Positions 613 through 42,667 of a DNA stretch of 42,667 nt are shown here, piece after piece (positions within the stretch are counted from its first letter, which is position 1; every line of letters begins with the position of its first letter). The notes under the pieces were generated by a model. The model saw only the letters and a program-made list of their open reading frames with translations. It was not told the DNA's origin and made no database searches. The translations under genes were made by a program, and so were the position numbers. Source of the stretch: a virus; the IMG/VR virus record IMGVR_UViG_3300050202_000021, positions 1-42,667 of that record. One strand, written 5' to 3'.

Positions 613-1821
613 TCAAAATTCGGACTGTTGCGCAAGGGCGTGTTGCGCGAAAACGCCAGCATTGCCGGGCGGCTTGGCTTCAGGGCGGCGATCCGAGAGT
701 GGCGCGACGACAAGGCCCGCACTGTCGGGCTTGTAGCCGTATTCCAGCGCCAATTCCTTGCCCCGGCTGGACAGTTTTTCGACGCCGGCCGGCGACAGCG
801 GTTCTTTCGGTTTGTAAGCCTTTTCGCCAAATGCCGCTTCGATCGCAGCGATGCCGCCGGGCTTCCAGACGCGTGCCGTCTGTTTTTCGACCAGCTTTGC
901 GCTCGGGATTTTCCCGCCGGTAACAAGCCGTGCGTGCACCGTCGTTTCGAGCACTTTCATGAAACGCCGGGCATGTTCGCGCTGCGCATAAAGCCCGTCC
1001 AATTCCTCGTTCGTAAGCATGGTGATAAAATCCTCTGAAGCGTCCGCATAAGTGCGGAAAGCGCGCTGCATTTTGACGCAGGACAGCAGCACGGGGCAAA
1101 ACTGGCAGTGATCGCCGGGCACATGATCCGCGTCGGTCACGACCTCGCGGCGCGCATAAAGCGCTTCCATGCGAGGCAGCAATTCGTCATGCATCCAGTC
1201 GAGCACGAATCCGACCGTCACCTCCCAAACGTCGGCGTCTTCGAAAATGCCGTAGAAATTGGGCTGGACGATCCCAAGGTTCACCGGAATATCGCGGTGC
1301 TTCGGCTCGACAAAACCGACGTCCAGGATCAGCAGCGCGCCATAATAGAGCAATTGCTGATTATTGCCTGCGCCAACGCCGATGCCTTCGCCGTTTTTAT
1401 AATCGCGAAGCCACAGTTTGCGCGGCGTCACTGCACCGAAATCGATCGTGCCTTTGAAAAGCGGGTGGACGTCGGGGCGCTTGATCGTGCGTTCGATCAG
1501 CACCGCGCCATCCTGCGCTTGGTCAAGGATCGCACGGCATTCGTTCACGTAAACCTGAACCGCGTTCAAGCTGATACCGTCCGGCCAACCGACGCGATAG
1601 CCGTTGAATTCTTCGCCGATGAATTCGAAGGGCTCTGCGTCTTCAGCAAGGCACGTAGCGCCTAGCTCGTGCGCAGCGGTTCCGAGCGCGGCGAATTCGC
1701 TCGGCACGTCTTCAAATTGTCCGCTTTCGATTTGCTCCCGCTGTAGCAGGAAAGAGGCGGCACAATTCATGAAACGGTGCGCGCCAGAGCCGCCAAGCGG
1801 CGAATGTTCAAGGTCGATCAT
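613..1821 (-). CDS. PD-(D/E)XK exonuclease, Cas4/RecB-like (DUF2800 type)
   Basis: 402-aa ORF. N-terminal SPLGGSGAHRFMNC...GTAAHE, central nuclease-core-like region, C-terminal Cys cluster HCQFCPVLLSC. It sits next to the SSB, as in the DUF2800-DUF2815-PolA modules. Confidence 0.75.
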   Translation of the reverse strand: MIDLEHSPLGGSGAHRFMNCAASFLLQREQIESGQFEDVPSEFAALGTAAHELGATCLAEDAEPFEFIGEEFNGYRVGWPDGISLNAVQVYVNECRAILDQAQDGAVLIERTIKRPDVHPLFKGTIDFGAVTPRKLWLRDYKNGEGIGVGAGNNQQLLYYGALLILDVGFVEPKHRDIPVNLGIVQPNFYGIFEDADVWEVTVGFVLDWMHDELLPRMEALYARREVVTDADHVPGDHCQFCPVLLSCVKMQRAFRTYADASEDFITMLTNEELDGLYAQREHARRFMKVLETTVHARLVTGGKIPSAKLVEKQTARVWKPGGIAAIEAAFGEKAYKPKEPLSPAGVEKLSSRGKELALEYGYKPDSAGLVVAPLSDRRPEAKPPGNAGVFAQHALAQQSEF

Positions 1822-1908: not shown

Positions 1909-2625
1909 TTAGCCGGCGAATTCAATCCCGGCCTTGGCTTCGACAGCCTTTGCGAACGCGTCGCGCTTTTCGTCGGGAATGTTCCGGCTGTGCGGAACCT
2001 GCCCCTCGGGGACGTATTCGGCGATCAGCGCCTTGATCGGCGCGGGATCACCGAGCTTGACCGCCGCCTGATTGCAGATCGCGCCCAAATCGGCATCGGT
2101 CCACTTGCGCGCCGGGATCGAAGCCGCAGCCGCCGCGTCGGTGCCGTTGGCCTTGTCAGCCGCCGCACGGAACGCCGCGAATTCGTCTTCGTCTTCAGTC
2201 GAAGTAGCAGCCGCGACCAATGCAGAGGCGGAAGGTGCAGAACCCGCGCCATCGCTCGGCGTGCCAGTGGCTCCATTTCCCTCCGCTTTCGGGAACCCCG
2301 GCTTCGGATCGGGACGGCTCACGCCGACCTTCATACGCCAGAGACCATCTTTCGTCATGCCGCGCGTCGAAGCATGAAGCTCTGCCGACCAAGGCCAGCC
2401 GGCCGCGTCGATCGTGCCGTCGTCGGCAGGGATTTCGGTCACGCCCTGCGTGCTTTCAGCTTCGACAGGCACGAGATTTGCCGGCGGTGCGGTGTTCTCG
2501 TGTCCGTTGGTGCGCGGTGCAGCGGTGGCGACGGCCGCAGTGGATACACCACCGAGAAGCGCGCAGACGGCAACGAACATGCTGCGCGGAATTGGCATAT
2601 GGATAAAATCTTCGTTCACTTTCAT
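1909..2625 (-). CDS. Hypothetical protein with N-terminal hydrophobic segment and GWPWSAELH..GLWRMKVG motif
   Basis: 238-aa ORF with an ATGA overlap to the helicase stop. It has a hydrophobic stretch SMFVAVCALLGGVSTAAVATAA and a 38-aa motif shared with 25775..26194. Confidence 0.7.
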   Translation of the reverse strand: MKVNEDFIHMPIPRSMFVAVCALLGGVSTAAVATAAPRTNGHENTAPPANLVPVEAESTQGVTEIPADDGTIDAAGWPWSAELHASTRGMTKDGLWRMKVGVSRPDPKPGFPKAEGNGATGTPSDGAGSAPSASALVAAATSTEDEDEFAAFRAAADKANGTDAAAAASIPARKWTDADLGAICNQAAVKLGDPAPIKALIAEYVPEGQVPHSRNIPDEKRDAFAKAVEAKAGIEFAG

Positions 2626-5129
2626 TCTCCGTGTTCGGCGTCTAGCACGCGGTGGATTACGTTCATTTTTTCGAGCGCTCTAACTAGAATTTTCTCCGAT
2701 ATGGAGCCGGGCGCTACGAAAATCTCTGCATTGACTAAATTCTCTTGCCCGATCCGATCGAGCCTTGCCACAGCTTGTTCGTTTTGTGCTGGCACCCAGT
2801 CGGGCTCTGCGAGGTAGCAACGCGAACAAACTTTTTGTAAACCGTCCAAGCCGGTTCCTGCCGACTGAATATTTCCGATGAATACCCTCTTGTGCGCTAA
2901 CGCAATAAAATCGTCAACCGCCTGTTGGCGCGCATTTGCCGATTTTCTCCCGTCAACGCGAACCGTGCCAAATCGCGACAAGCCATTTTCGAAAAGCGTC
3001 AGCACGTCGATATGCCAGCCGAAAATGACTAATTTTTCTTCCGATCCTTCCAAGAAATCTATGGCGTAATCGATAATCTGCGGTGCGAGCGCCAGCCCCA
3101 TAAGCCGCCGCGCTTCGGCGATATGGCCTAGGATTTCAAAATCTTTCGGCGTCTGAATTTTTTCAACCGACAAGCCTAACATGCCTTCGACGTCGAGTGC
3201 GTCCTTGACCGTTCCGTTTTCTTCACAGGTAACGACTGAATAGCGCGGCGGTTTCATCCAGCGCAAAACATCTTTCTTTTCGTGCCGTGCCATGATGTTG
3301 ACGCGCAGCCGGTTCTGAAGCTCGCTTTCCAGGCTCGTGCTTTCGAGCTTGAAGCGCTTGCCTTCGATCGTCTTCATATCCGCCTGTTTGTTGTAACGGT
3401 CCTTGAATTGCTGTTCGCCCAAAAAATCGATCGCTTCATGGTCGAAGTGGCGAAAAAGCACGTAACAATTATGGGCAATCACAGGACCGTCTGCGCTCAA
3501 TATCGTGAACCGGCGTCTAGGCCCGGCATTTGCAATGTCGTAAACAGGCTCGGAGCATTTCGATTTCTTCCAAAGCGATATCCAACCGCCCCTGTAAATC
3601 CGCGACAATTCGCCGATTGCCCATATTTTCTTTTCGGGTGATAAATCGCAAATTTCCCGGCTCATAGCCGCGATTGTTGTCGGTGCGATCCAATTGTAAA
3701 CCCGAAATATCGTGGCCTGACAAAGAAACAAGATACGCCAACCAAGCCGGACGGTTTTCGAGCCATTCAGGCCAAACGTAGATACCCCGCCCACCATAAG
3801 ATTTCCACGCATTGTTTTTGGGATTGGTGCAGCGATCCCGGACGGATTGCATAATACCGAGCAAGCGTTGACGCAATTTAAGGTCGGGACAAATTTCGTG
3901 ATATTTTGAATTGGCTTTGATCGAGCCATCTTTTGCACCGCACGATCGACACCGCGTAACAGTGCCTTGCCGCAGTTTCTGAAGCGTAGTGCGGGTGAAG
4001 CCGCCGCACTGGCAATCACATTCGACAACCTTAGGGCCGCTCGGATGCCGGGTATTGCCACGCACGGTAAGATTTCCGAACCGCTCGCCAACACTTGCTG
4101 CCACAAAACCGTATTTAGGCGCGCCGCGTCGGCTGACGCCCATGTAGATTTGGCCCGGAAGCGGTGTGTTGGAGTTACTGAAATTTGTCCGATGCTCACC
4201 GTCTGTGCGCATCCTTGATACAAAAGGCCGCGATGCCCTACCCATTCAACCCCATCCCACAGTAAGTCAGTTTTCTTGACCCGCACGATAGGCACCCATC
4301 CGCGCTGCGTCAGCACTTGCGTTGAACCGGCCAGACACTCGCTCGGACGGTTCAAAAGCAACGTCCCTGTCAACGCTATTTTGCGCTTACAATAGTTTGC
4401 GATCGCAGGCATTTTGATATCGCCGTGCTGGTATTCGCCCCGGTTGTTTCCGAGCACGGCGCGCGTCGTCAGCGCGTCGATATTCTTCATTTTGTGTGCT
4501 TCGTCGCAAATCAGCACGTCCCATTTAATTTTGGAAATCGCTTTGATGATCGCCGGATTGCGGGCAGCGTCATAGCTTAAAACCTGATAATTTGCCGTGG
4601 GGTGAATTCCGTCTTTGACCTTCAACATCACAGCAATTTTGCAATTCGGTATGGTGCTCCATTCGCGGATACGCTCACCCCATTGGATACGCACCGATGC
4701 CGGCACGATCACCAGGACGCGCTGCGCTTCGACTTCGTTGCAAAACGCGATCGACGTGGGAGTCTTTCCCAAACCCGGCTGATCGCCGTTGATCCCGCCG
4801 CCGCGCGCCAGCAAATAATCAAGCGTGGCCTTCTGGTAATCCCAAAGCTCCAACCCCGGCGGCAGCTTGCGCGTGCCGATCCCGTCGAGCGCCCGCGACA
4901 AATCGATTTCCCGGCGATAGGCGGCAAGCTCGGGGCAGTCCCCTAGATCAGCGAGTGCGTAAGCATTCGGGCTGAACAACACCGCCTTTTCGCGGCTCGA
5001 TGCCGACGTGCTGAACACGAGACCGCGATAGGCCATGAGCTCGGCGACCTCGCCTTTGCGGGCGGCAGGCACCTCCAGGACGTAATGGCCGTTATTTGCG
5101 GAAACTTTCATATCATCTAATCCGTGCAC
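2622..5129 (-). CDS. SNF2-family helicase, intein-containing precursor
   Basis: 835-aa ORF. Motifs: GDQPGLGKT (motif I), LICDEAHKMKN (II), LTGTLLLNRPSE (III, interrupted), QSAGTGLDGLQ and QNEQAVARLDRIGQ (V-VI). ATG at 5111 is an alternative start. Confidence 0.9.
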   Translation of the reverse strand: MHGLDDMKVSANNGHYVLEVPAARKGEVAELMAYRGLVFSTSASSREKAVLFSPNAYALADLGDCPELAAYRREIDLSRALDGIGTRKLPPGLELWDYQKATLDYLLARGGGINGDQPGLGKTPTSIAFCNEVEAQRVLVIVPASVRIQWGERIREWSTIPNCKIAVMLKVKDGIHPTANYQVLSYDAARNPAIIKAISKIKWDVLICDEAHKMKNIDALTTRAVLGNNRGEYQHGDIKMPAIANYCKRKIALTGTLLLNRPSECLAGSTQVLTQRGWVPIVRVKKTDLLWDGVEWVGHRGLLYQGCAQTVSIGQISVTPTHRFRAKSTWASADAARLNTVLWQQVLASGSEILPCVAIPGIRAALRLSNVIASAAASPALRFRNCGKALLRGVDRAVQKMARSKPIQNITKFVPTLNCVNACSVLCNPSGIAAPIPKTMRGNLMVGGVSTFGLNGSKTVRLGWRILFLCQATIFRVYNWIAPTTIAAMSREICDLSPEKKIWAIGELSRIYRGGWISLWKKSKCSEPVYDIANAGPRRRFTILSADGPVIAHNCYVLFRHFDHEAIDFLGEQQFKDRYNKQADMKTIEGKRFKLESTSLESELQNRLRVNIMARHEKKDVLRWMKPPRYSVVTCEENGTVKDALDVEGMLGLSVEKIQTPKDFEILGHIAEARRLMGLALAPQIIDYAIDFLEGSEEKLVIFGWHIDVLTLFENGLSRFGTVRVDGRKSANARQQAVDDFIALAHKRVFIGNIQSAGTGLDGLQKVCSRCYLAEPDWVPAQNEQAVARLDRIGQENLVNAEIFVAPGSISEKILVRALEKMNVIHRVLDAEHGE
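3468..4337 (-). mobile_element. Intein (290 codons) inserted in SNF2 motif III
   Basis: In-frame insert between ..NRPSE and CYVLFRHF. It begins CLAGSTQVL (block A), has VTPTHRF (block B) and ends EPVYDIANAGPRRRF..GPVIAHN followed by +1 Cys (blocks F/G). Confidence 0.8.
3517..4245 (-). CDS. HNH-type homing endonuclease ORF nested in the intein, in a different frame
   Basis: 242-codon ORF on the same strand, offset by one nt from the helicase frame. Motifs: GERFGNLTV, CDCQCGG..CRSCG, WKSYGGRGIYVWPEW, LDRTDNNRGYEPGNLRFITRKENMGNRR. It is a paralogue of 17260..17784. Possible starts are 4245 or ATG 4143. Confidence 0.7.
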   Translation of the reverse strand: MGRASRPFVSRMRTDGEHRTNFSNSNTPLPGQIYMGVSRRGAPKYGFVAASVGERFGNLTVRGNTRHPSGPKVVECDCQCGGFTRTTLQKLRQGTVTRCRSCGAKDGSIKANSKYHEICPDLKLRQRLLGIMQSVRDRCTNPKNNAWKSYGGRGIYVWPEWLENRPAWLAYLVSLSGHDISGLQLDRTDNNRGYEPGNLRFITRKENMGNRRIVADLQGRLDIALEEIEMLRACLRHCKCRA

Positions 5130-5180
5130 GAACCGCAGCGGTCTTCTTTGCCTTCCGGCACCGCGCTTTGAAAATCACCG

Positions 5181-5408
5181 TCACAAATCAAACTCCGCCG
5201 GGGGCACGACGATATCGGCAACCTTCATTACCGGGATCGGGCCAATCCAACCGACGATCCCGCGATGCCAGGTGTGCCAGCGCCCGCTTGCCCATGTGAG
5301 AATAACCGGCTCAACCCATTCGCTCGCTTGGTGTGCAGTGATTTGCACAAGCGCAACATAGCGACCCTCGATTTTCGGATTACCCGTTTTGATATTGGCG
5401 GCGTTCAC
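5181..5408 (-). CDS. Small protein, DUF551-like (tentative), tandem paralogue A
   Basis: 75 aa. GTG start in a GTGA overlap. GNPKIEGRYV...WIGPIPV matches its neighbour. Ends PPAEFDL. Confidence 0.6.
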   Translation of the reverse strand: MNAANIKTGNPKIEGRYVALVQITAHQASEWVEPVILTWASGRWHTWHRGIVGWIGPIPVMKVADIVVPPAEFDL

Positions 5409-5620
5409 AGGTCAAACTCCATTGCAGGTGCTCCAAGCGTCGGCAGCGGCCCTATCCAAGCCTCAACGATCGTCGAACGCGACATAGGCGGCTCGCGCAG
5501 GTTCGCCGACCAACCAACGCCATCGATCCACAGCCGCACGACGGTAGCCAAACCATCGTCACCCATAAGATAGCAGACATAGCGCCCCGTCTCTGGCGGA
5601 TTTCCGCGTTGCACGATCAC
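5405..5620 (-). CDS. Small protein, DUF551-like (tentative), tandem paralogue B
   Basis: 71 aa. GTG start in a GTGA overlap. GNPPETGRYV...WIGPLPT. Ends APAMEFDL. Confidence 0.6.
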   Translation of the reverse strand: MIVQRGNPPETGRYVCYLMGDDGLATVVRLWIDGVGWSANLREPPMSRSTIVEAWIGPLPTLGAPAMEFDL

Positions 5621-5940
5621 AGGTCAAACTCCATTGCGGGTTGGGGCAAATTTTCCTGAAGGCGGATCGCCGCGCGCGCCTGATCCAAAAGACGTTGCAT
5701 CAACGCTTCATAGACCTCTGCGTCATATTCGGCGATCATTTTCTTTAGCGTCGCCAAATCAAATCCGCCGAATTGCCCGGCGGCGATGATTTTGGCGCGC
5801 CGAATTTGCTCATCGGTGTAGCGTCGCGTATCGCCGGCCGATCGACCGACCTCGCCTAGCAAACCCTCATCTTCCCAAAAGCGGACGGCGCGACGTGTTG
5901 CGCAACCCGCTCGGCACATATCATCCATTGAAAATTGCAT
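5617..5940 (-). CDS. MerR-family HTH regulator
   Basis: ATG at 5940 preceded by AGGAGGA. SMDDMCRAGCATRRAVRFWEDEGLLG...RRYTDEQI resembles the MerR N-terminal HTH. The ORF is open up to 6015. Ends PAMEFDL. Confidence 0.65.
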   Translation of the reverse strand: MQFSMDDMCRAGCATRRAVRFWEDEGLLGEVGRSAGDTRRYTDEQIRRAKIIAAGQFGGFDLATLKKMIAEYDAEVYEALMQRLLDQARAAIRLQENLPQPAMEFDL

Positions 5941-6325
5941 CGCATTCCTCCTGCGGCGCGTCGCGCCAATAGTGCACCCGCTCAACAATAAAATAGGTTT
6001 TGCCCGCAATTTCACGGTGCGGCAATCCGGCGAATTTCAATTCATTCGCCAGACGGTTCGCGCTTTTGAACGGGGCGGCGCGCATGGAAAAACCAAGCGC
6101 GATCGGCAGCACCCGCCAAATCGGTTCAAGCTCCGCAGCGGTATAAAACGGGCGCGCTTGCCAAAGAGCTAGCCAAGGCTTCACCGCTTCGACGTCCAGG
6201 CCGGACGTAGCGAATGCCCAAGCCTCGACACGCGCTTTCCACTGCGCGATGATCCCCGTCTGATTGCCTGTGGCCTTCATGGCTTTGACAATCTTGTAGG
6301 TGTCGGTTTTGTAAAAATCGGTCAC
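5921..6325 (-). CDS. Hypothetical protein
   Basis: 134-aa ORF with a GTG start inside the TTGTGA overlap with the upstream gene. Confidence 0.6.
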   Translation of the reverse strand: MTDFYKTDTYKIVKAMKATGNQTGIIAQWKARVEAWAFATSGLDVEAVKPWLALWQARPFYTAAELEPIWRVLPIALGFSMRAAPFKSANRLANELKFAGLPHREIAGKTYFIVERVHYWRDAPQEECDAIFNG

Positions 6326-6894
6326 AAATCATACTCGTGCTTAATGTGCACAAATTTATGCTTCGAAAAACGCCCTACTAAAATCGCGCCAAGGGCGACC
6401 ATTTCGGTGTGCGTGCGTGTGCGGGGTCCCGCCTTCCGCGCGACCATCCTACCTTGAATTTGAAACACGGGTTCAGGACTGGTTTTCCCTTTATACTCCC
6501 AATTATCCGCCCGGTAAATTGCACCTGTGTGCCCTTGCCACTCATCAGCATAAGTCACAAGGCAAGGCCAGCGAAGCCGATCGATCGCGCGACGGGACGC
6601 CGCCAATAGAAAGGATGCTGAATTTTTAGGGCATTCGGGATCAAGCACTAAGCGCGAAAGACACAAAACGCCGCCCCAATTGGTCCTGTAAGTGGCCTTT
6701 GCTGCGCTTTTTGTCGGCGGTATCCACCACGCTATTCCTCGGCAATTAGCGGAACCGCGACGAAAAAGGCCATGCCGATAGGTTGCCGTATTCGATCCAC
6801 CTCTGGTATAGTGTAGCCTCATCACAAAATCTTGCGCAACCGATAAAGGGATCGTGCGGATTTCCCATTCCGCTTTATGCAAAACTTCAGTCAC
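6322..6894 (-). CDS. GNAT-fold, Mom-like protein (putative DNA modification; tentative)
   Basis: 190 aa. Pattern VAQDFVMRLHY..(G)..GIAWW..P....L.LSRLVL....PKNSASFLL......LVTYADEWQGHTGAIYRADNWEYKG recalls the phage Mom/GNAT-like family. Ends HEYDL. Confidence 0.5.
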   Translation of the reverse strand: MTEVLHKAEWEIRTIPLSVAQDFVMRLHYTRGGSNTATYRHGLFRRGSANCRGIAWWIPPTKSAAKATYRTNWGGVLCLSRLVLDPECPKNSASFLLAASRRAIDRLRWPCLVTYADEWQGHTGAIYRADNWEYKGKTSPEPVFQIQGRMVARKAGPRTRTHTEMVALGAILVGRFSKHKFVHIKHEYDL

Positions 6895-8765
6895 AAGTCA
6901 TATTCCTGCGTCGGGATTTCCCAATTGTTGCGATCATGCAACCAAGCCAATTCGCCACTTTTCATAAGCTGTTGACGCACGACACTCGCGTCGATTCCTA
7001 GCCGTCCTGAAATTTCCTGCGCCAGCGTAGCAGTCGAAGCCTTGCCACCCATGCCTTCCAAAGTTTTCACGACCTCTTTAACGCTTGCCCACTCATAGCG
7101 CGATTTTCCCGGTCCCTGTATTTCTGCGGGCACGGTTTCCGCACGCGCAAGAATGATCGAACCGCCGAATTCCTTGACTTGAAAATAGCTGATTTCATCC
7201 GAGACGTCTGCGTCTTTTTGTTTCCTTACGCGAAGCTCTGTCCCCCCTTGACGCAATTTTGTCGAAATCACCGCGTCCATATTCGCATAAAATGCGCTCG
7301 ATCCGCGCGCGCCCTTGTTCTGATCCTTGCCGGTGTGATGGATAGCGAGCACAAAACATTCGTAATAGCGCGCAAGCTGCTCCATGAAATTCGTTATCAT
7401 GCTTGCATCTTTGGCGGAATTTTCGTCCATCCCGGTTAGCAGGCGCGTCATTGTGTCGATCACGATCAGCGCAGGCTTGGCCTTCAATAGTGTCAAATCC
7501 TCTTTGACGTGCTCCCAGGCTTGCGTATCGGTGAAGAAAGGCACGCGATCCTTTATGAAAAATCGGTGATCGTTTCGAAATTCGATCCCCTGCCATTCCA
7601 TCCACGCGGGCCAACGCTTTTTGCCGGTCGCAACCGGCCCTTCGCCTGCCATGAAAAGCACATCGTTTTTAACCGGCGGTGCGCCCCATTGACCGGGAAC
7701 GCCAAACGCAAGCGATAGTGCCATGTCGAGTGCAATAAAGGATTTGAATGATCCGCTCTCCCCGTAAATCATGCCCGTGCCGGTGCTCGGGATCATATTA
7801 GGGATCAACCATGCGGGATCACGCACGTTGTCGGCATAATCGTGGAGCGCTTGCACGCGGTCACGGTCGCGGGGCTCGGGTTCGGGTGGCTCAAATTCCT
7901 GCCCGACAAATGCGGCGAACGCGGTTTCGTTTTCCAGAAAACCTTTGACGCCGCCAGTATCCTCTCCGTAATTTGCGGCGTTGCGAATGAGACCTTCTAA
8001 TTCCCATTCATCCCATGGCGGCTGACAAGCGGCGTTCCAGTGCTCCCACATAAGATCAAAGCACATGCCCGGCGATATGGCTTTGTCCAGAATCGAAGCC
8101 GCCACCTGAAAGGCGAGATTATTGCCGCCGCGCCCTTGCACTGACACGCGTCCCGACTGCACATAGCCTTTGAGCAAATCGACTGCCCACGAAATATTGC
8201 GGGGCTTGTCGGCATCGGGGTTTTTCACAAGCCCTAAAGTATCGGTCTTTTTCCGCTCAGGCACGATGCCGATAATCGCGGCTGGTAACGGTTCGATCGT
8301 GCCCCCCGGCAAAGCCTCATAGCTGCCCTTATCGGTTTTCGATCCAGGCAAAAGCACATAGCCGCCCGAAATTATCTTACCGTCGCGCTTGATCCCGCCG
8401 CGCGTGTCGATCCCGTCCGCAATGCGGCTGGCGGTGCTCGGGCCTTCCCCCTTGAAATAGACGTGTAGACCACCCCTAGGCGTGCGGACCTGATAGGCGC
8501 GGTCAACCGCTGCCCTTATGTCTGCGTCGCGCGCTAGGAGCTTTGCCCACCAATCAAGCCCGGCCGGGTCAACGTCGATCACGAAAAGCCCGCTAAGGCC
8601 CGTCGCTACTGCCCAATTGAATTCAGGGTTAACGCGCTGCCATTGCGCGATTTGGGCGGGATCGTCGCTCGCTTCATGCCAGCCGTTCGGCGTGGCAGGG
8701 AGCTTGCCGCCCGGCACCACCGGAAAGACCTTGCATCCCTGTAATTGATCCGGTAAACTTTGCAT
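6891..8765 (-). CDS. Bifunctional primase-polymerase (PrimPol) fused to RepA/DnaB-like AAA helicase
   Basis: 624 aa. N-terminal VFPVVPGGKLP..GLFVIDVD..GGLHVYFKG..IDTRGG..GGYVLLPGS. C-terminal Walker A GESGSFKS and Walker B LIVIDTMT. Confidence 0.9.
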   Translation of the reverse strand: MQSLPDQLQGCKVFPVVPGGKLPATPNGWHEASDDPAQIAQWQRVNPEFNWAVATGLSGLFVIDVDPAGLDWWAKLLARDADIRAAVDRAYQVRTPRGGLHVYFKGEGPSTASRIADGIDTRGGIKRDGKIISGGYVLLPGSKTDKGSYEALPGGTIEPLPAAIIGIVPERKKTDTLGLVKNPDADKPRNISWAVDLLKGYVQSGRVSVQGRGGNNLAFQVAASILDKAISPGMCFDLMWEHWNAACQPPWDEWELEGLIRNAANYGEDTGGVKGFLENETAFAAFVGQEFEPPEPEPRDRDRVQALHDYADNVRDPAWLIPNMIPSTGTGMIYGESGSFKSFIALDMALSLAFGVPGQWGAPPVKNDVLFMAGEGPVATGKKRWPAWMEWQGIEFRNDHRFFIKDRVPFFTDTQAWEHVKEDLTLLKAKPALIVIDTMTRLLTGMDENSAKDASMITNFMEQLARYYECFVLAIHHTGKDQNKGARGSSAFYANMDAVISTKLRQGGTELRVRKQKDADVSDEISYFQVKEFGGSIILARAETVPAEIQGPGKSRYEWASVKEVVKTLEGMGGKASTATLAQEISGRLGIDASVVRQQLMKSGELAWLHDRNNWEIPTQEYDL

Positions 8766-11029: not shown

Positions 11030-11614
11030 TTACAAATCCAACCCCGCAAGCTCTTTTTTCGCAAAATACTGAATTTCATTGCGTGCGCCGATCGACACTG
11101 ATTTCCAGTATCCGGCGAATTCAGGAAGCCTGCGCACGTTCAAAAGCGCAAGCGTGATCCAGGGCGCATTTTGCTCCCTTAGGAACGCGTTAAGCGGCGA
11201 TAGCAGGCGCGCCGCAATCCAGTGATAGGAAACCGTGCGCTCGTCCGGCAAGACGTTCATAAGCCACTGTGCCAAGACCAGCGCCGCGTCGGCATTACCC
11301 TTGCTCGCTTCCTGAATTTCGGCCGTGACGTCGATTGGCGCGCCTGTGGCTTTCACGTCTCCGAGCGTGCGTAATTGCGCTTCAGCGCGTTTCGCATAGG
11401 TTCCACTGATATAACCTAGCTCGTCGATCAACGCGGGATCGTCGATCAGCCATAGCAGCATAGGCAACGTAAATTTCATGTTGCCTCGCATATGGAAAAG
11501 CAATTGCGAAATTTGCTCGCTTTCCTTATCTACTTTCAGCGCGCCGAATTTTTCGATCCTGCGCAAAGTTTTGAGGGGCACGCGCGCTTTTCGCGCCAGT
11601 GTGTAAATATCCAT
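11030..11614 (-). CDS. Hypothetical protein with N-terminal HTH-like segment
   Basis: 194 aa. MDIYTLARKARVPLKTLRRIEKFG. Ends AGLDL. Confidence 0.6.
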   Translation of the reverse strand: MDIYTLARKARVPLKTLRRIEKFGALKVDKESEQISQLLFHMRGNMKFTLPMLLWLIDDPALIDELGYISGTYAKRAEAQLRTLGDVKATGAPIDVTAEIQEASKGNADAALVLAQWLMNVLPDERTVSYHWIAARLLSPLNAFLREQNAPWITLALLNVRRLPEFAGYWKSVSIGARNEIQYFAKKELAGLDL

Positions 11615-16228: not shown

Positions 16229-16553
16229 AGAATTGACGACCAGGACCGATATGCAGCAGCCGCCGCGCGACCTCGCGCGCCTGCCGATGATTAGCGCCGA
16301 ACAATATCAGCATATCGGGCGCTTCAGCGGCGCGCTCGTGCTGTCCTGCTTCGAACAAATCGGCGGTTTGCCGCGCATGGCGGCGTGGGCCGATCAGAAT
16401 CCAACGGATTTTTTTACCAAGCTGTTTCCGAAAATGATTTCCCGCTCGCAGCAAGTGGACGTGTCGGGCACGCTGACTATCGACGACGCAATCACGCGGC
16501 TGGAACGCATGGAAGACGCAGATTTCGACGAGGTGCCGACTTATGACCTATGA
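16221..16553 (+). CDS. Hypothetical protein
   Basis: 110-aa ORF (alternative ATG at 16251). Ends VPTYDL. Confidence 0.55.
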   Translation: MGEELTTRTDMQQPPRDLARLPMISAEQYQHIGRFSGALVLSCFEQIGGLPRMAAWADQNPTDFFTKLFPKMISRSQQVDVSGTLTIDDAITRLERMEDADFDEVPTYDL

Positions 16554-16719
16554 TCGTAAATTTGGGCAGGCTGAAGGCTTGCGCGAACGGCTCGTCATGT
16601 GGGCCGATCGGCTCGGCAAAGACAAATCCTTTCCGTGGATGGGCACCGGCTTGATCGACGACCTGCGCGCGGCAGCGGGCCAGCCGAAAAAATCTGAAAT
16701 TGTGGAGTTTGACCTGTGA
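16543..16719 (+). CDS. Small hypothetical protein (58 aa)
   Basis: ATG at 16543 (MTYDRKFGQAEGLRERLVMWADRLGKDKSFPWMGTGLIDDLRAAAGQPKKSEIVEFDL). Its stop is in a GTGA overlap with the next gene. It is below the ORF-track cutoff. Confidence 0.5.
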   Translation: MTYDRKFGQAEGLRERLVMWADRLGKDKSFPWMGTGLIDDLRAAAGQPKKSEIVEFDL

Positions 16720-25774: not shown

Positions 25775-26194
25775 ATGGACGACAAAATCCCGTGGCCGTC
25801 ATGGCGTTATGGCCCCAACGGCGAAAGCCAGGTTTTCGAAACCGCAAGCGCGGTGCCGGCCGGCTGGCAGGATCACCCGTCGAAGGTGGTCACAGCGGCC
25901 CGCTCGGGCAGTGAGCCCTTGCCGCCGCAGACGGACCAGGTGCCGCCGGAACAGCGCGGCGCAGCGCCTGTGCAGCAGCCGAACGACGCGACAGGCGAAC
26001 AGAGCGGCGGCGCGGCGCGCGATACGCAGATTTCCGACGTCAGCAACACGCTTGACGCGGACGGCTGGCCATGGTCGGCTGAATTGCACTCTGCGACGCA
26101 GAGCCAAACCAAGGCGGGCTTGTGGCGTATGAAGGTCGGTGCGAGCCGTCCCGATCCCAAGCCAAGCCATCTTAAGCCTGTGCTCGATTTGTAA
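25775..26194 (+). CDS. Hypothetical protein with GWPWSAELH..GLWRMKVG motif
   Basis: 139 aa with AGGAG upstream. It shares a 38-aa motif with 1909..2625. Ends PVLDL. Confidence 0.65.
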   Translation: MDDKIPWPSWRYGPNGESQVFETASAVPAGWQDHPSKVVTAARSGSEPLPPQTDQVPPEQRGAAPVQQPNDATGEQSGGAARDTQISDVSNTLDADGWPWSAELHSATQSQTKAGLWRMKVGASRPDPKPSHLKPVLDL

Positions 26195-37027: not shown

Positions 37028-37705
37028 ATGAACCTTCGCGATTTCCAAATGTGGCTCAACGCGCACGGCGCGTCGATCGCTGTTGACGGGAAGGGCGGTC
37101 CCGCCACGCGCGCAGCAGTGTTCAAGGTTTTCACCAATCTGAATGCGCCAGCCGTGACCTCACAGGAAATTGCGGCCTTCGCCAATCGGCTCGGGGGCAC
37201 CGCAAAGCAGGTGAACGCCGTCGCCAAGGTCGAGAGTGCGGGCGGCGGCTTCAATGACCAAGGCCAGCCGAAAGCTCTTTACGAGCGGCACTATTTTTGG
37301 CGGCGTCTGCGGATCATCATCCCGTTGTTCTCAAATCCGTCGCCGGGCGGATACACGATCGACGCGGATCGCGACGGGTTGAACGATAGCTGGGAAAAAA
37401 TCGCCGATGCCGCGATGCGCAACCCGATCGCAGCTTTCGAGAGCGCGAGCTTTGGAAAATTTCAGGTCATGGGCGCATGGGGGACCAAGCTCGGCTACAC
37501 CAATGCGATCGAATTTGCCTATTCGTTGTCGCGCAGCGAAACGGCGCACTATGAGGCGCTTGTTCGGTATATCGAGCGGTTCGGTCTCGTGCAGGCTTTC
37601 CGCAAAATTTCAACCGATTGGCGCGCCTGCACTGATTTTGCACGCGGTTACAACGGCAAGGGCCAAAAAGGCTATGATCGCCGTATCGCGGACGCAATGC
37701 GGTGA
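37028..37705 (+). CDS. Endolysin: PG-binding domain plus N-acetylmuramidase (DUF3380-type)
   Basis: 225 aa. FQMWLNAHGASIAVDGKGGPATRAAV (PG_binding_1-like), then AVAKVESAGGGF...YERHYFWR...FGKFQVMG. Confidence 0.75.
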   Translation: MNLRDFQMWLNAHGASIAVDGKGGPATRAAVFKVFTNLNAPAVTSQEIAAFANRLGGTAKQVNAVAKVESAGGGFNDQGQPKALYERHYFWRRLRIIIPLFSNPSPGGYTIDADRDGLNDSWEKIADAAMRNPIAAFESASFGKFQVMGAWGTKLGYTNAIEFAYSLSRSETAHYEALVRYIERFGLVQAFRKISTDWRACTDFARGYNGKGQKGYDRRIADAMR

Positions 37706-37935
37706 AAAATTTGCCCGTCTTTAACCTCGTCGCATTTCTCGCGGTGCTCGGGGCGATCGTCACGCTTTGCCTTGCCGGGAAAGCAACCGATTTGGCCGTC
37801 ATTACAGGGCTCGTCGGTGTGCTCGGCTCGTTCAGGCCATGGGGTGCAGCGACGCCATCGTCTGAAGCTGCTACGGGCAAGGCCGACGATCCGCTGAACG
37901 TGGCGGCGGCAGAAACAAAACCGCTTGATCTTTGA
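37702..37935 (+). CDS. Two-TM membrane protein (holin/antiholin candidate)
   Basis: 77 aa. GTGA overlap. Two hydrophobic segments. Confidence 0.45.
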   Translation: MKNLPVFNLVAFLAVLGAIVTLCLAGKATDLAVITGLVGVLGSFRPWGAATPSSEAATGKADDPLNVAAAETKPLDL

Positions 37936-38707: not shown

Positions 38708-39189
38708 AGGAATTTACGACCGTATAGGGCCAGGAGCGCAGCTTCAGCGATCCCGTCGTCTTTTGCGCGCGCCACGGCGTGCGCGATCCGGGGAAGCGTG
38801 TTGCGGACCTTCTCGCGACTGGCGTTCTTGTCCGCGCCCTTGGCTAAGCCCATTTTGCTTTTCCAGGTGCTCGGAGTGACGAATTCAATTCGGCAACCAA
38901 CGGCCGCAGCCAGGGCGTGCGCAAACCCGTAGCTTTTGCCAAAGGTGAACATGCTCGTTACACCCTGCCCCGGCCGCGCAGCCACTTGCTCGATGACGAT
39001 TAGATCGGGTGGCGTGAAGGCAAGCGCATTGCCCCAATTCGACGCCCACAACGCCCATGCCGGCGTTTCCTTGGGGAGCTTCACCAAGGGCACGGGAAAG
39101 GTGAGCGCCGCGTCGTCGGGAAAGAGGATCACCAACGCGCCGGTTTTGCCCGGATCGACGCCGGCGACGATCCTAGAAGGGTGCGTCAT
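38704..39189 (-). CDS. RuvC-like Holliday junction resolvase
   Basis: 161 aa. IVAGVDPGKTGALV...LIVIEQV...TPSTWKSKMGL...DDGIAEAALLA. Confidence 0.75.
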   Translation of the reverse strand: MTHPSRIVAGVDPGKTGALVILFPDDAALTFPVPLVKLPKETPAWALWASNWGNALAFTPPDLIVIEQVAARPGQGVTSMFTFGKSYGFAHALAAAVGCRIEFVTPSTWKSKMGLAKGADKNASREKVRNTLPRIAHAVARAKDDGIAEAALLALYGRKFL

Positions 39190-39706
39190 CGAAATTCTCC
39201 CAATTCGTCAAAAAAGGTTGAAGCCATGGGGGCGGGTTGCAGCACGGAACGCCGTCGTTTGATCGCGGCACTGATCGGTATTCTTCAAGCCCCTTTGTCA
39301 CGAAAGCCCAATAGCGTTTCGTGTCCAAATCCTGCAAAGCGCGACCAGGGCGCGCGTGCTGCAAAAAGCGGTTGATCGCTGCGGTTTCGGGCTTGACGTG
39401 CTCGACACAAAGCGTCGAGGGACCGGCCGGGCAACAATGATCGACCTGAAGATTGGTAATTTCAAAACCATGGATATGAATTGCCGCCCATCGGTGCGCC
39501 AGCCACATTTTTCCTTCAAACCAGAAATAGCCGTAAGGCTCATTATGGCCATGACCTCGCGTCATCGTGCCTACCCACATGACGCAGCCGGTGATCGGAT
39601 CGAAAGCGCATTTCTCCGCGAAGCGTTGCAACGCGTCAGTCGATTTCAGCCGTCCGGCCGCATCGCGCTCCGCCTCACGCACATAATGCCGGTTTGGTGC
39701 CGGCAT
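39173..39706 (-). CDS. HNH endonuclease
   Basis: 177 aa from ATG 39706 (TAATG overlap with polA). GCVMWVG...GYFWFEGKMWLAHRWAA...VDHCCPAGPSTLCVEHV. Ends FDDAPF. Confidence 0.7.
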   Translation of the reverse strand: MPAPNRHYVREAERDAAGRLKSTDALQRFAEKCAFDPITGCVMWVGTMTRGHGHNEPYGYFWFEGKMWLAHRWAAIHIHGFEITNLQVDHCCPAGPSTLCVEHVKPETAAINRFLQHARPGRALQDLDTKRYWAFVTKGLEEYRSVPRSNDGVPCCNPPPWLQPFLTNWENFDDAPF

Positions 39707-41709
39707 TATTTTCGGTAACGCTGCATGGATTCGACCTCGGCCTTGACCCTGAACCTGCGTTCGATCGCCCACGGCTCGACGTCTTCCATAAGCTGACGAA
39801 TTACCGTGCACAGGTCGGAGCGATCCTTTTCCTCGAAAACCAATTCATCATGCACCTTGAAAATCGTGTAAAAGCCCGCCGCTTCCGCACGCTTCAAAGC
39901 ACCCGTCATAAGATCGCGCGCGGATCCCTGCACGCAGTCGGCCGTCACCATGCCGTGCCAGGCTAAGTGCCGCCGGAATTTCTTGCCCTGATAGGACATG
40001 AATGACCAAGCGGGGTGTTCGTCGCCCGTGACCGGATTATAGCTTTTGGCCTTGCGCGGGCGGTGATACCAGATTTTGCGCCCGCTCGGCAGACGCATGG
40101 TGAGAAAATCATTTTCCTTGCGAAATTCAATCCCTGCGTAGAAATAGGTTTTCGCGTGATCGCACCAAACTGCATCAACGCTGGCTTGATAAAGCCCATA
40201 CCAAAATTTCGGCACCATCGGCGCGACCTCTTGCCGATATGTCGCGATGCAGATTTTGGCAAATTCGACACTCTCTTTTGGCGCGAAACGGGCGCGGAAG
40301 CCAAGCGGCCCCAAACCGTAGCCACTACCAAGGAACGTCTGTTTTCCGATATTGCCCATGATGGCGTGCTCGGGCAATTTGCGATTGATCGGGCGCTTGT
40401 AGATCATCGACGCAGTTTCGGAATAGACATCCTGCCCACTATGCATTTGGTCAACGCGATCGTGCTGCCCGGCGAACGACAAGAGGTTGCGCGCCTCAAC
40501 CGCAGCATAATCGCCCGACGCGATCACCTTGCCTTTTTCGGGCACGATGCACGAGCGCAGCGACGATATGATCGCGGTGAAGATATCCGAACCCCAAAGC
40601 TCGCGGATCGTGCCCAAATTGCGTGAAAGGATGGCTTCGGCAAGAATATCGGCAGTCAAGCCTTGCCGATCCCCAATTTCGCCGCGTGGGTAATTCTGAA
40701 TTTGGATCAGCCGCCCGCCGTCGCGTCCGGTGCGCGCTGCATGATATTGAGTCGTATAACGCACCCGATCGTCGGAGCCTGCACAGGCGAGCATTCTTTC
40801 GAGCTTGGCGACCGATGACGACGCCAACGAACGCCGCAACGTCAGCACCTCGTGGACGTGATAAGGCAAAGGTTCGTCGAGAGCTTCGATCCCGAATTCG
40901 TCATCGGGATCGAGGATCGCGTTGAGTGTCTGCTTGCGCATGTCACCAAGCGCGATGCCTTGATCGTTTACCCAATTCAGCACTTTTTCGCGCTGCGTCG
41001 GGCGCAAGCCGGTTAGCTCGATAAATCGCTCCGTCATCGGCACGCGGACCTGATCGAGCACGTCGATGCAAGCGTGCACGAATTCCTGATCGATTTTAAT
41101 TCCGCGCTGGTTCACGCGCTGATCGAGTATCCAGGTGTGGCGTTCGCTTGCACCAAGCCCCTGCGTCGAGACATAAACCCCATATTGCGCGTCAACGTCA
41201 GCGTTGCAGTATTCATAGAGCCGCGAAAGATTTTCCGATGTGTGATGCGACCAACCACCGTCGCGATCCGGCTTGCACATCATAAGCATGTGCCGGTGCC
41301 CGTCCATATCCTTCTTCACAGGCAATTCCAGCGCCGTGACGACGGCATCGAGACCAAGCGGCAACGCCTTCATGGCAGCAGCGGCCATTGTATCATGCCA
41401 GCGCTCGGGCGGCAGTGGGGCGTAGCCCATCGGCTCCATGTGAAAACGCCACATCGCTTGCTCAAAGCCCGCGTTGTGCGCGATGAAAATCACCTCGGGA
41501 TCGTTGACCAAATCAACCAGGCGCGGATCAAGCGCGTGCAGCATTTTTTCGGATAAGCAAAAGGCTTTTTCGGGCCGCTTATCGACGATGATTTTCAGCG
41601 ACAGACAGAGCGGAAACGTCGTCATGTCGGCGGCGTATTTCCACGCACCGATTTTTAGCAAGTCTGCACGGCTCGCTGTTTCGAAATCTGCGACAACGCT
41701 TTTCATCAA
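39706..41709 (-). CDS. Family-A DNA polymerase with 3'-5' exonuclease domain
   Basis: 667 aa. ExoI ADFET, motif A SGDYAAVEAR, motif C KVHDELVFE. Confidence 0.9.
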   Translation of the reverse strand: MMKSVVADFETASRADLLKIGAWKYAADMTTFPLCLSLKIIVDKRPEKAFCLSEKMLHALDPRLVDLVNDPEVIFIAHNAGFEQAMWRFHMEPMGYAPLPPERWHDTMAAAAMKALPLGLDAVVTALELPVKKDMDGHRHMLMMCKPDRDGGWSHHTSENLSRLYEYCNADVDAQYGVYVSTQGLGASERHTWILDQRVNQRGIKIDQEFVHACIDVLDQVRVPMTERFIELTGLRPTQREKVLNWVNDQGIALGDMRKQTLNAILDPDDEFGIEALDEPLPYHVHEVLTLRRSLASSSVAKLERMLACAGSDDRVRYTTQYHAARTGRDGGRLIQIQNYPRGEIGDRQGLTADILAEAILSRNLGTIRELWGSDIFTAIISSLRSCIVPEKGKVIASGDYAAVEARNLLSFAGQHDRVDQMHSGQDVYSETASMIYKRPINRKLPEHAIMGNIGKQTFLGSGYGLGPLGFRARFAPKESVEFAKICIATYRQEVAPMVPKFWYGLYQASVDAVWCDHAKTYFYAGIEFRKENDFLTMRLPSGRKIWYHRPRKAKSYNPVTGDEHPAWSFMSYQGKKFRRHLAWHGMVTADCVQGSARDLMTGALKRAEAAGFYTIFKVHDELVFEEKDRSDLCTVIRQLMEDVEPWAIERRFRVKAEVESMQRYRK

Positions 41710-41972
41710 AAATCTTCCGGGTTAAACGGAATTGCGTCGATCGCTCGGAGCGCTTGCCGCGCCCTTTGCGCGCCCTTCCCGGTGCCGGCGGCGCGAGCTT
41801 TCAAGTTTGCGTGGTTCAGCGCTTGGCGGGCTGGATCGGGCGTGCCCCGGTGGATAATCGCGCAGCTTGCGTGTTGAAGCCGCCACCCGGCACCAAACCG
41901 CTCAAAATGCCCTGCGCCGGTATCGACGGCGCAACCGCAACGGTAACATTTGCCGGGATATTGATTTCGCAT
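41706..41972 (-). CDS. Small zinc-ribbon-like protein
   Basis: 88 aa. GKCYRCGCAV...HASC. Ends NPEDF. Confidence 0.55.
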   Translation of the reverse strand: MRNQYPGKCYRCGCAVDTGAGHFERFGAGWRLQHASCAIIHRGTPDPARQALNHANLKARAAGTGKGAQRARQALRAIDAIPFNPEDF

Positions 41973-42394: not shown

Positions 42395-42667
42395 TCAGAA
42401 CGGAATATCTGCGTCCAGCGCGTTGCTCGACGGCGCGTTGGCGAGAGGGTCGATATCGGAATATCCGGCATAGCTACCGAACACCTCGTTATTGTTCGGC
42501 CCGCCGCCGCCAGCAAGGCGCTCGCCCTTGCGCACGAACAGACAGTTTTGCAGGTAGGCGGTGCAGCCATCCTTGGCATCGAGCGTCTTGCGCCGGAAGC
42601 CCTTGAAGGCCACCGCAGGCACGACGTAAGCGCCAGGATAGAAATAATCCTTGCCCGCCTGCGCACG
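42395..42667 (-). CDS. ssDNA-binding protein, C-terminal part (same gene as 1..537)
   Basis: Continuation ...AKDGCTAYLQNCLFVRKGERLAGGGG...SNALDADIPF. The acidic tip ending in Phe is typical of SSB tails. The combined product is 239 aa. Confidence 0.8.
   Translation of the reverse strand, partial: RAQAGKDYFYPGAYVVPAVAFKGFRRKTLDAKDGCTAYLQNCLFVRKGERLAGGGGPNNNEVFGSYAGYSDIDPLANAPSSNALDADIPF
42578..42667. repeat. Terminal direct repeat, copy 2 (circular assembly overlap)
   Basis: Identical to nt 1..90. The unique genome length is therefore 42577 bp. Confidence 0.9.

Follow-up and report, generated by a model that had tools for sequence, protein, structure and literature searches.

Why should unrelated proteins of one virus end in the same few residues, and is it the peptide or the RNA encoding it that is being maintained? 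The question is posed by the IMG/VR virus record IMGVR_UViG_3300050202_000021, which is complete at 42,667 bp (57% G+C) and is referred to below, as a whole, as the window. Seven of its proteins end in [F/Y]-D-L and three more in L-D-L (stops at 11030, 26194 and 37935). An earlier note on this DNA, made from its letters alone, had drawn attention to these ends and had proposed either a docking peptide or degron, or a purely translational coupling cassette that dictates the last four residues; all ten ends, and the codons quoted for the seven, are as it described them. Comparison with related phages favors the peptide side of this choice. With moderate confidence, we interpret the tail as a portable C-terminal motif, present on about 35 protein families, that docks its carriers on one shared partner.

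Selection on the last three residues

The abundance of these ends, which the earlier note had judged to be far above chance, is indeed exceptional. The window's own amino-acid composition predicts 0.019 [FY]DL ends, against the seven seen (Poisson P about 2e-16), and 0.31 DL ends, against the 10 seen among 65 proteins (Poisson P about 2e-12). Among open reading frames (ORFs) of at least 40 amino acids (aa) that are not genes, one in 324 ends in DL. The 65 window genes were called by a simple self-trained codon-usage caller, and small genes were possibly missed.

Relatives, found by means of the PrimPol-helicase of the early arm (62–75% identity), comprise 16 IMG/VR loci and 3 contigs from metagenome-assembled genomes (MAGs), every one of which has 4–9 motif-ending genes. 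After two duplicate loci were dropped, 109 of 455 called genes in the related loci were found to end in [FYHLW]DL; the counts that follow refer to these 109 carriers. They belong to about 35 families unrelated by BLAST, and retention of the tail is complete within the multi-member families: 18/18 for PrimPol, 18/18 for the MerR-like proteins, 12/12 for a 69-aa family that includes 5405..5620, and 7/7, 7/7 and 6/6 for three others. The families of the two plus-strand genes 16251..16553 and 16543..16719 keep a YDL end in 6/6 and the tail in 4/4, respectively. In the 191-aa family that includes 11030..11614, all ten members are tailed, nine with LDL and one with EFDL, after a variable linker. Each of the six complete genomes has 7–12 carriers, nearly all of them in the early or replication arms, and the head-module protein (orthologue of 25775-26194) ends in LDL in all six.

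Within this set the earlier note's own proposed check, a comparison of orthologous junctions, could be run. The residues [FY/L]-D-L are fixed, even where there is no overlap of any kind, whereas the nucleotides, the stop codon and the kind of overlap differ from junction to junction; for this reason the peptide reading is favored and a purely RNA-level cassette is rejected. The details are as follows. The terminal Leu is specified by all six of its codons (CTG 43, CTA 25, TTG 21, TTA 9, CTT 7, CTC 4), the Asp by GAT in 56 carriers and GAC in 53, and the stop is TGA in 91, TAA in 11 and TAG in 7, so that the variation among copies falls on synonymous sites. Of the 111 ends with [FYHLW]-D at the two preceding positions, 109 close with Leu, one with Met and one with Asp; a terminal Phe never occurs, against about 3 TTY codons expected if nucleotide positions were independent. 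The motif is also a matter of position. Internal [FY]DL is at chance level (31 observed versus 25 expected), and the nucleotide pattern TWYGAYYTN is overall no commoner than in outgroup genomes, but directly before a stop it occurs 6–10 times per genome, versus 0–1 times in outgroups.

The relationship to the downstream gene points the same way. Carriers were considered uncoupled if no downstream ORF of at least 40 codons had its start in the span from 14 nt ahead of the last base of the stop codon to 40 nt past it, and 14 of the 109 fall in this class. One of them (L012 5382-5900) is followed by a terminator-like hairpin on the same strand, and another (L010 1-366) by a hairpin with a 14-bp stem, which the scan places on the opposite strand. 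Hence the statement of the earlier note that the motif always lies at a start/stop overlap is true of the window but not of the clade. Conversely, ordinary 4-nt overlaps are found at 62 genes without the motif. Because codons and stops are free, the position is strictly terminal, uncoupled carriers retain the tail and non-motif genes overlap without it, we regard the core of aromatic residue or Leu, Asp and Leu as shown, at the level of comparative sequence analysis, to be selected as a peptide that is anchored to the upstream C-terminus and not to the downstream start.

These observations bear directly on the possibility that a Shine-Dalgarno (SD) element, a spacer and an overlapping start and stop dictate the last four residues without any role for the peptide. 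GAG, Leu codons ending in A or G, and TTT and TAT are all enriched at the motif, and Glu at position -4 tracks coupling, as such a cassette would have it. Nonetheless, the use of all six Leu codons and of TAA and TAG stops, the uncoupled carriers, the missing terminal Phe, the synonymous variation and the anchoring to the upstream stop all speak against it. The comparison of orthologues largely refutes a purely RNA-level cassette, and we consider it highly improbable.

A second nucleotide-level explanation would see in the 12–15 common nucleotides at gene ends a stretch of micro-homology for module exchange, with the peptide as a by-product. In its favor, 12 different downstream families occur in 16 PrimPol junctions, with breakpoints right after the stop. 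Copies of the motif DNA outside the usual place would also agree with this idea: the linkers of three MerR-family proteins contain tandem internal copies (..VEHDL..QEYDL; ..VEFDLDQPQSYDL), and an out-of-frame copy, GAATTTGACCTGTGA, lies 2 nt past the stop of the carrier L002 5864-6574 (at L002 6572-6591). Yet the number of distinct neighbors per junction is much the same for motif (0.64) and non-motif (0.61) genes, copies within a genome differ synonymously, which lessens their homology, and conservation is at the amino-acid level. A recombination linker is therefore a very unlikely explanation of the motif. The internal linker copies and the out-of-frame copy, which are remnants or duplicates of the tail module, both suggest that this module is portable.

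Overlay of translational signals on the same nucleotides

Peptide selection does not exhaust the information in these gene ends. In the window the stop is part of YTGTGA at six of the seven [FY]DL junctions, as the earlier note had it, and the seventh is CTATGA, with the next gene starting from the ATG inside TATGAC, 8 nt before the stop. Among the related loci, a called downstream gene overlaps by 4 nt in 51 of 109 carriers, and a scan for ORFs places the downstream start at -4 in 56 and at -11 in 23; the latter 23 start at the ATG within TAT-GAY, 8 nt before the stop (-11 as counted from its last base). Most junctions thus have the overlapping or abutting stop and start, with an SD element in the upstream gene, of ordinary ATGA/GTGA coupling, and resemble it in overlap and codon choice. 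They differ from it in that the amino acids are not free here, being fixed even when the overlap type changes or vanishes.

Codon usage allows the two layers to be separated. The earlier note's proposal that the Glu codon often supplies the SD element is well supported: GAG is located 8 nt ahead of the overlapping start, Glu occupies -4 in 49 of 60 overlapping junctions against 4 of 14 uncoupled carriers (Fisher p = 2.5e-4), and GAG makes up 68% of Glu codons at the motif versus 35% genome-wide. For Leu, the rare codons CTA and TTA account for 31% at the motif versus 10% genome-wide, and CTY for 10% versus 43%, an excess and a deficit by which ATGA or GTGA is created. TTT constitutes 75% of the Phe codons at the motif, versus 38% genome-wide. 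Codon choice at -4, -3 and -1 is thus biased so as to equip the next gene with its SD element, A/T-rich spacer and start. The same 15 nucleotides double at the RNA level: the Glu codon at -4 (GAG, often after G) is the SD element of the gene that follows, the Leu codon is picked to end in A or G such that ATGA or GTGA overlaps the stop, and TAT-GAY is able to furnish an ATG start 8 nt before the stop codon. Each of the two views is in part true, at its own layer: Glu and the codon choices serve coupling, and the last three residues serve the protein.

The single tail-less gene in the chain of carriers, 5921-6325(-), is instructive in this context. Its orthologues often end in ..EREFDxxx, and the last codons of the gene and its orthologues overlap the SD element and ATG of the MerR-like gene (GGAxxxxGATG). 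Because of this overlap, the family shows that a ribosome-binding site embedded in a C-terminus can by itself yield E-x-D-like residues.

An intermediate model would have the last residues act as nascent peptide within the ribosome, for instance through an acidic penultimate residue that slows release at UGA, and thereby favor re-initiation on the tightly coupled next gene. Bjornsson, Mottagui-Tabar and Isaksson are said to have found in 1996 that the last two residues modulate termination efficiency in E. coli. The stop is TGA in 83% of carriers versus 56% of other genes, and 87% of carriers have a downstream ORF of at least 40 codons near the stop, both of which would fit. On the other side stand the 14 uncoupled carriers, some with hairpins beyond them, the 62 overlapping non-motif genes, which imply that coupling needs no tail, and the long flexible linkers described below, for which the model has no role. 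We know of no arrest or termination motif that resembles the tail, and consider this model quite improbable.

A putative docking peptide

On the basis of the genomes compared, the tail is restricted to one phage clade. All 120 close PrimPol homologues listed from a set of 5.8 billion proteins end in x[YFH]DL. Representatives of PrimPol clusters (50% identity) that are 42–45% identical mostly end in EFDL or G[FY]DL, the latter in clusters P0123, P0124 and P0126. A divergent lineage with a PrimPol about 45% identical (L058), a close relative of the cluster representative at 45%, has [FY]DL tails on 11 of 35 genes, with Q, R, E, Y or D at -4. Homologues at 39% identity or less either end a few residues past a conserved W.LP, without a DL tail, or have acidic tails with a terminal F, such as ..NPEEF, ..RSEEF and ..QSDF. 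No DL tails occur in the outgroups that share the replication module (L027/G009, L029/G010 and L030). Homologue scans with P0124, P0126 and P0131 gave nothing useful, and a scan with the G009 PrimPol matched only G009 itself.

The outgroup G009, which also has the structural module in common with the clade, is of particular interest. Three carriers have orthologues there with a terminal Phe: ..QGMEF in PrimPol, ..DPSIF in the family of 16251..16553 (family 16), and ..EPSEF in the head-module protein; in all, 9 of its 63 genes end in F, which is an excess. From these sequences it looks as if the type of tail was switched on the same set of proteins between sister lineages. L027/G009 additionally has a recurrent end of its own, ..MYQPA in two ORFs and ..AAYQP in one (3591-4232, 5063-5155 and 977-1159). 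Acidic tails of the F type are also found in the window itself, namely in the DUF2800 exonuclease 613-1821(-) (..QSEF), the HNH-like protein 39173-39811(-) (..FDDAPF), an 88-aa protein 41706-41972(-) (..NPEDF) and the SSB (single-stranded DNA-binding protein) 42395-42622(-) (..DADIPF); orthologues of the exonuclease and SSB in the relatives likewise end in F. Phe-ended acidic tails may constitute a second docking code beside Asp-Leu.

The architecture of the carriers is informative as well. Alignments of eight families show a conserved domain, then a Pro-rich linker of variable length and sequence, and then the invariant tip; PrimPol and family 11 have a short linker. In an AlphaFold (AF2) model of the MerR-like protein, built from a 19-sequence alignment with a mean predicted local distance difference test score (pLDDT) of 91.5, the chain is folded through residue 96, and the last ~10 residues are coil, with a mean pLDDT of 72 over residues 101-107. 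The tail is exposed in this model, and docking peptides usually have just this order of fold, linker and tip.

An exposed, strictly C-terminal hydrophobic-x-hydrophobic end with a free carboxylate, borne mostly by early proteins, would equally suit a degron, by which a host or phage protease or adaptor of the ClpXP, Lon or FtsH type reads the tail, so that the early proteins would all persist for a similar, limited time. The ssrA tag and the MuA tail are known C-terminal degrons, and the anatomy here is as in these. More generally, a free end of the hydrophobic-x-hydrophobic or acidic-x-hydrophobic kind is recognized in C-terminal degrons (ssrA LAA, MuA RRKKAI) and in PDZ class II/III ligands alike. 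The tails belong, however, to a sequence class other than those of known bacterial degrons, being neither LAA-like nor RRKKAI-like, and the scanned phage proteins offer no PDZ, TPR or protease reader. Moreover, the essential replicative PrimPol-helicase and the head-module protein are tailed in every genome, and the sister-lineage orthologues bear acidic F-ended tails, a type known for docking and not for degradation. We consider a degron unlikely.

What the comparison shows is conservation at the protein level, a strict C-terminal position, restriction to one clade, an exposed tail and codon bias tied to coupling; docking, and a target for it, we infer. In the scheme that we favor, the last three residues with their free carboxyl end form a portable short linear motif, presented behind a flexible linker or straight after the fold, which the clade has put onto about 35 families of unrelated proteins, most of them early; the tip would dock all carriers on one shared partner. 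This partner would most likely be a component of the replication fork, because every carrier of recognizable function acts on DNA. The carriers assigned by Pfam are the PrimPol-helicase, the Mom-like modifier, the MerR-type helix-turn-helix (HTH) protein, cytosine-C5 methylases (L024, L058), an S-adenosylmethionine-dependent (SAM) methyltransferase (L019) and an HNH-NUMOD4 nuclease fused to a MerR module (L003). Among the phage's own proteins, the family-A polymerase and the SSB are candidate partners, on the model of the acidic T7 gp4 and gp2.5 tails; a further candidate is the sliding clamp of the host, as the tail resembles the QL[SD]LF and QLxLxL motifs. In three MAGs, the nucleotide pattern of the motif occurs almost exclusively on phage contigs, and consequently there is no sign, in these sequences, of a host set of natural ligands.

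Three known systems deserve comparison. 1) The tails of T7 gp4 and gp2.5 and the SSB tip (D-D-D-I-P-F) are likewise short, acidic and hydrophobic extreme C-termini behind a flexible linker, with one peptide common to several replication proteins and one reader (T7 polymerase or the SSB-interacting proteins). The likeness to T7 gp4 extends to a primase-helicase among the carriers, and the phage also has F-type tails on SSB and exonuclease. The differences are an aromatic residue at -3, Asp at -2 and Leu at -1, with no terminal Phe or Pro-Phe and no acidic run to I-P-F, and a spread over about 35 families in place of two, among them methylases and HTH proteins, but also very small proteins and one of the head module. 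2) The clamp-binding motifs QL[SD]LF and QLxLxL (Pol IV ends in QLVLGL) have a hydrophobic-x-hydrophobic tip that can be a free C-terminus and tolerates Asp in the middle, and they recruit a wide range of unrelated enzymes acting on DNA to a single ring. The hydrophobic-D-L of the tail fits positions 2-4 of QL[SD]LF or 4-6 of QLxLxL, and Q is found at -4 in about 6% of all tails and is the second commonest residue there in uncoupled tails. Unlike these motifs, the tail has no terminal Phe, Gln is mostly replaced by Glu, and the phage's own polymerase is untailed. As a lead only, ..QGQFAFDHIEK is the end of a DinB from a Sphingomonadales MAG in which a contig of a related phage is present. 3) The ends of T4/RB69 gp43, gp33 and gp55 that bind the gp45 clamp are one hydrophobic or acidic C-terminal peptide on unrelated proteins with one phage hub; there the clamp is phage-encoded, whereas no clamp gene is seen here, and the sequence differs. 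Clamp-binding and SSB-tip motifs are known to bring DNA-modifying enzymes and a helicase onto one moving platform. A literature search for the tail motif, or for shared phage C-terminal motifs of this type, returned nothing relevant.

Several observations weigh against docking at the fork. Pfam and PHROG searches, which covered about 40 of the 65 window proteins, found no PDZ, TPR, clamp or protease domain. A confident AF2 model of the tail-less 134-aa core protein of the chain (5921-6325) had no PDB match at E ≤0.001, and in the ESM Atlas this protein and a 236-aa core protein fall in unnamed clusters only. The head-module protein and many proteins of 50–80 aa are also tailed, which fits a replication hub poorly, and the tail has neither the terminal Phe and, for the most part, the Gln of clamp motifs, nor the Pro-Phe of SSB tips. 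The switch to Phe tails is known from one outgroup genome, all gene calls come from our own caller, and the sole links to hosts are weak ones, from related contigs in Erythrobacter, Sphingomonadales and Massilia MAG bins.

A bolder and distinctly more tentative proposal is that of a protein address system in small podovirus-type phages, in which a handle of three residues would gather around 10 otherwise unrelated proteins per genome (the primase-helicase, DNA-modifying enzymes, regulators and small accessory proteins) on a hub at the fork. Handle and reader would change together between sister lineages, from Asp-Leu tails here to Phe tails in the outgroup, and new accessory genes would become functional by gaining the handle, whose DNA at the same time supplies a ribosome-binding site for any gene that is inserted after it.

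The tail-bearing genes and their significance

The early arm of the window codes for a family-A DNA polymerase, a DUF2800 exonuclease, an SNF2 helicase, the PrimPol/AAA_25 helicase, the Mom-like protein, the MerR-type HTH protein, a RuvC-like resolvase and the SSB, and the late genes include a P22-type portal, terminase, scaffold, major head protein and endolysin. There is no close cultured phage, as blastn gave no matches, and tblastn matches do not exceed 38% identity for PrimPol or 33% for the portal. Minus-strand ORFs extend past the record on either side (42395-42667 and 1-591), including the region of the SSB gene, and the record is on this account probably circularly permuted or cut inside a gene; three complete relatives have been assigned to the class with direct terminal repeats. 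The tail-bearing genes and associated features are listed below.

Table 1. Genes of the window that bear the tail, an associated micro-ORF, and MerR-family linkers with internal tail copies in related loci
Feature	Position	Strand	End and remarks
PrimPol / AAA_25 helicase	6891..8720	-	..PTQEYDL; Pfam PF09250 + PF13481
Mom-like DNA-modification protein	6322..6894	-	..KHEYDL; Pfam PF25680, phrog_1384
MerR-type HTH protein	5617..5940	-	..PAMEFDL; Pfam PF13411
71-aa protein, GW[IL]GPLP family	5405..5620	-	..PAMEFDL
75-aa paralogue of 5405..5620, Family 19	5181..5408	-	..PPAEFDL; overlapping GTG opens micro-ORF only
Basic 23-codon micro-ORF	5113..5184	-	Starts at the GTG of TTGTGA after 5181-5408
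194-aa early protein	11030..11614	-	..LAGLDL; TAA stop, no overlap
100-aa protein	16251..16553	+	..VPTYDL; next start is the ATG within the Tyr-Asp codons (TATGAC)
58-aa protein	16543..16719	+	..IVEFDL; CTGTGA overlap with next gene
139-aa head-module protein	25775..26194	+	..KPVLDL
77-aa protein adjoining endolysin	37702..37935	+	..KPLDL; membership uncertain
MerR-family linker with internal copy	L008 8524-8802
MerR-family linker with internal copy	L009 4019-4387
MerR-family linker with internal copy	L018 12248-12601

The stop of the PrimPol-helicase gene sits in TTGTGA, and the overlapping GTG is the start of the Mom-like gene. The latter has no orthologue in five complete relatives and is for that reason an accessory gene, still bearing the tail. 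The micro-ORF, which the earlier note had rightly placed after 5181..5408, ends 1 nt before the ATG of the SNF2 helicase gene (5111) and, from this arrangement, is possibly a translational relay. No homologue of the 77-aa protein was found in five relatives. Between the exonuclease and SNF2 helicase genes lies 1909-2619(-), the gene of the 236-aa core protein, which has no Pfam or PHROG match and a near-invariant end, ..AGIEFAG, in 16 relatives.

Shared C-terminal docking peptides are known for few replication proteins, such as the SSB tip, T7 gp4 and gp2.5, and the clamp binders. In the clade described here, between a sixth and a quarter of the genes, most of them without known function, bear one tetrapeptide. 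The tail is of practical use in annotation as a mark of genuine small genes, and it sets the clade apart from its sister lineages. The junctions also provide a clean natural case of dual coding: selection for the protein acts on three residues, and selection for translating the gene that follows acts on the fourth residue and on codon choice. The presence of replication proteins among the carriers, together with this dual-coding junction, makes this very short tail in a small genome unusually tractable. If one partner does read the tail, it would give a direct experimental handle on the role and place of dozens of early proteins whose functions are unknown.

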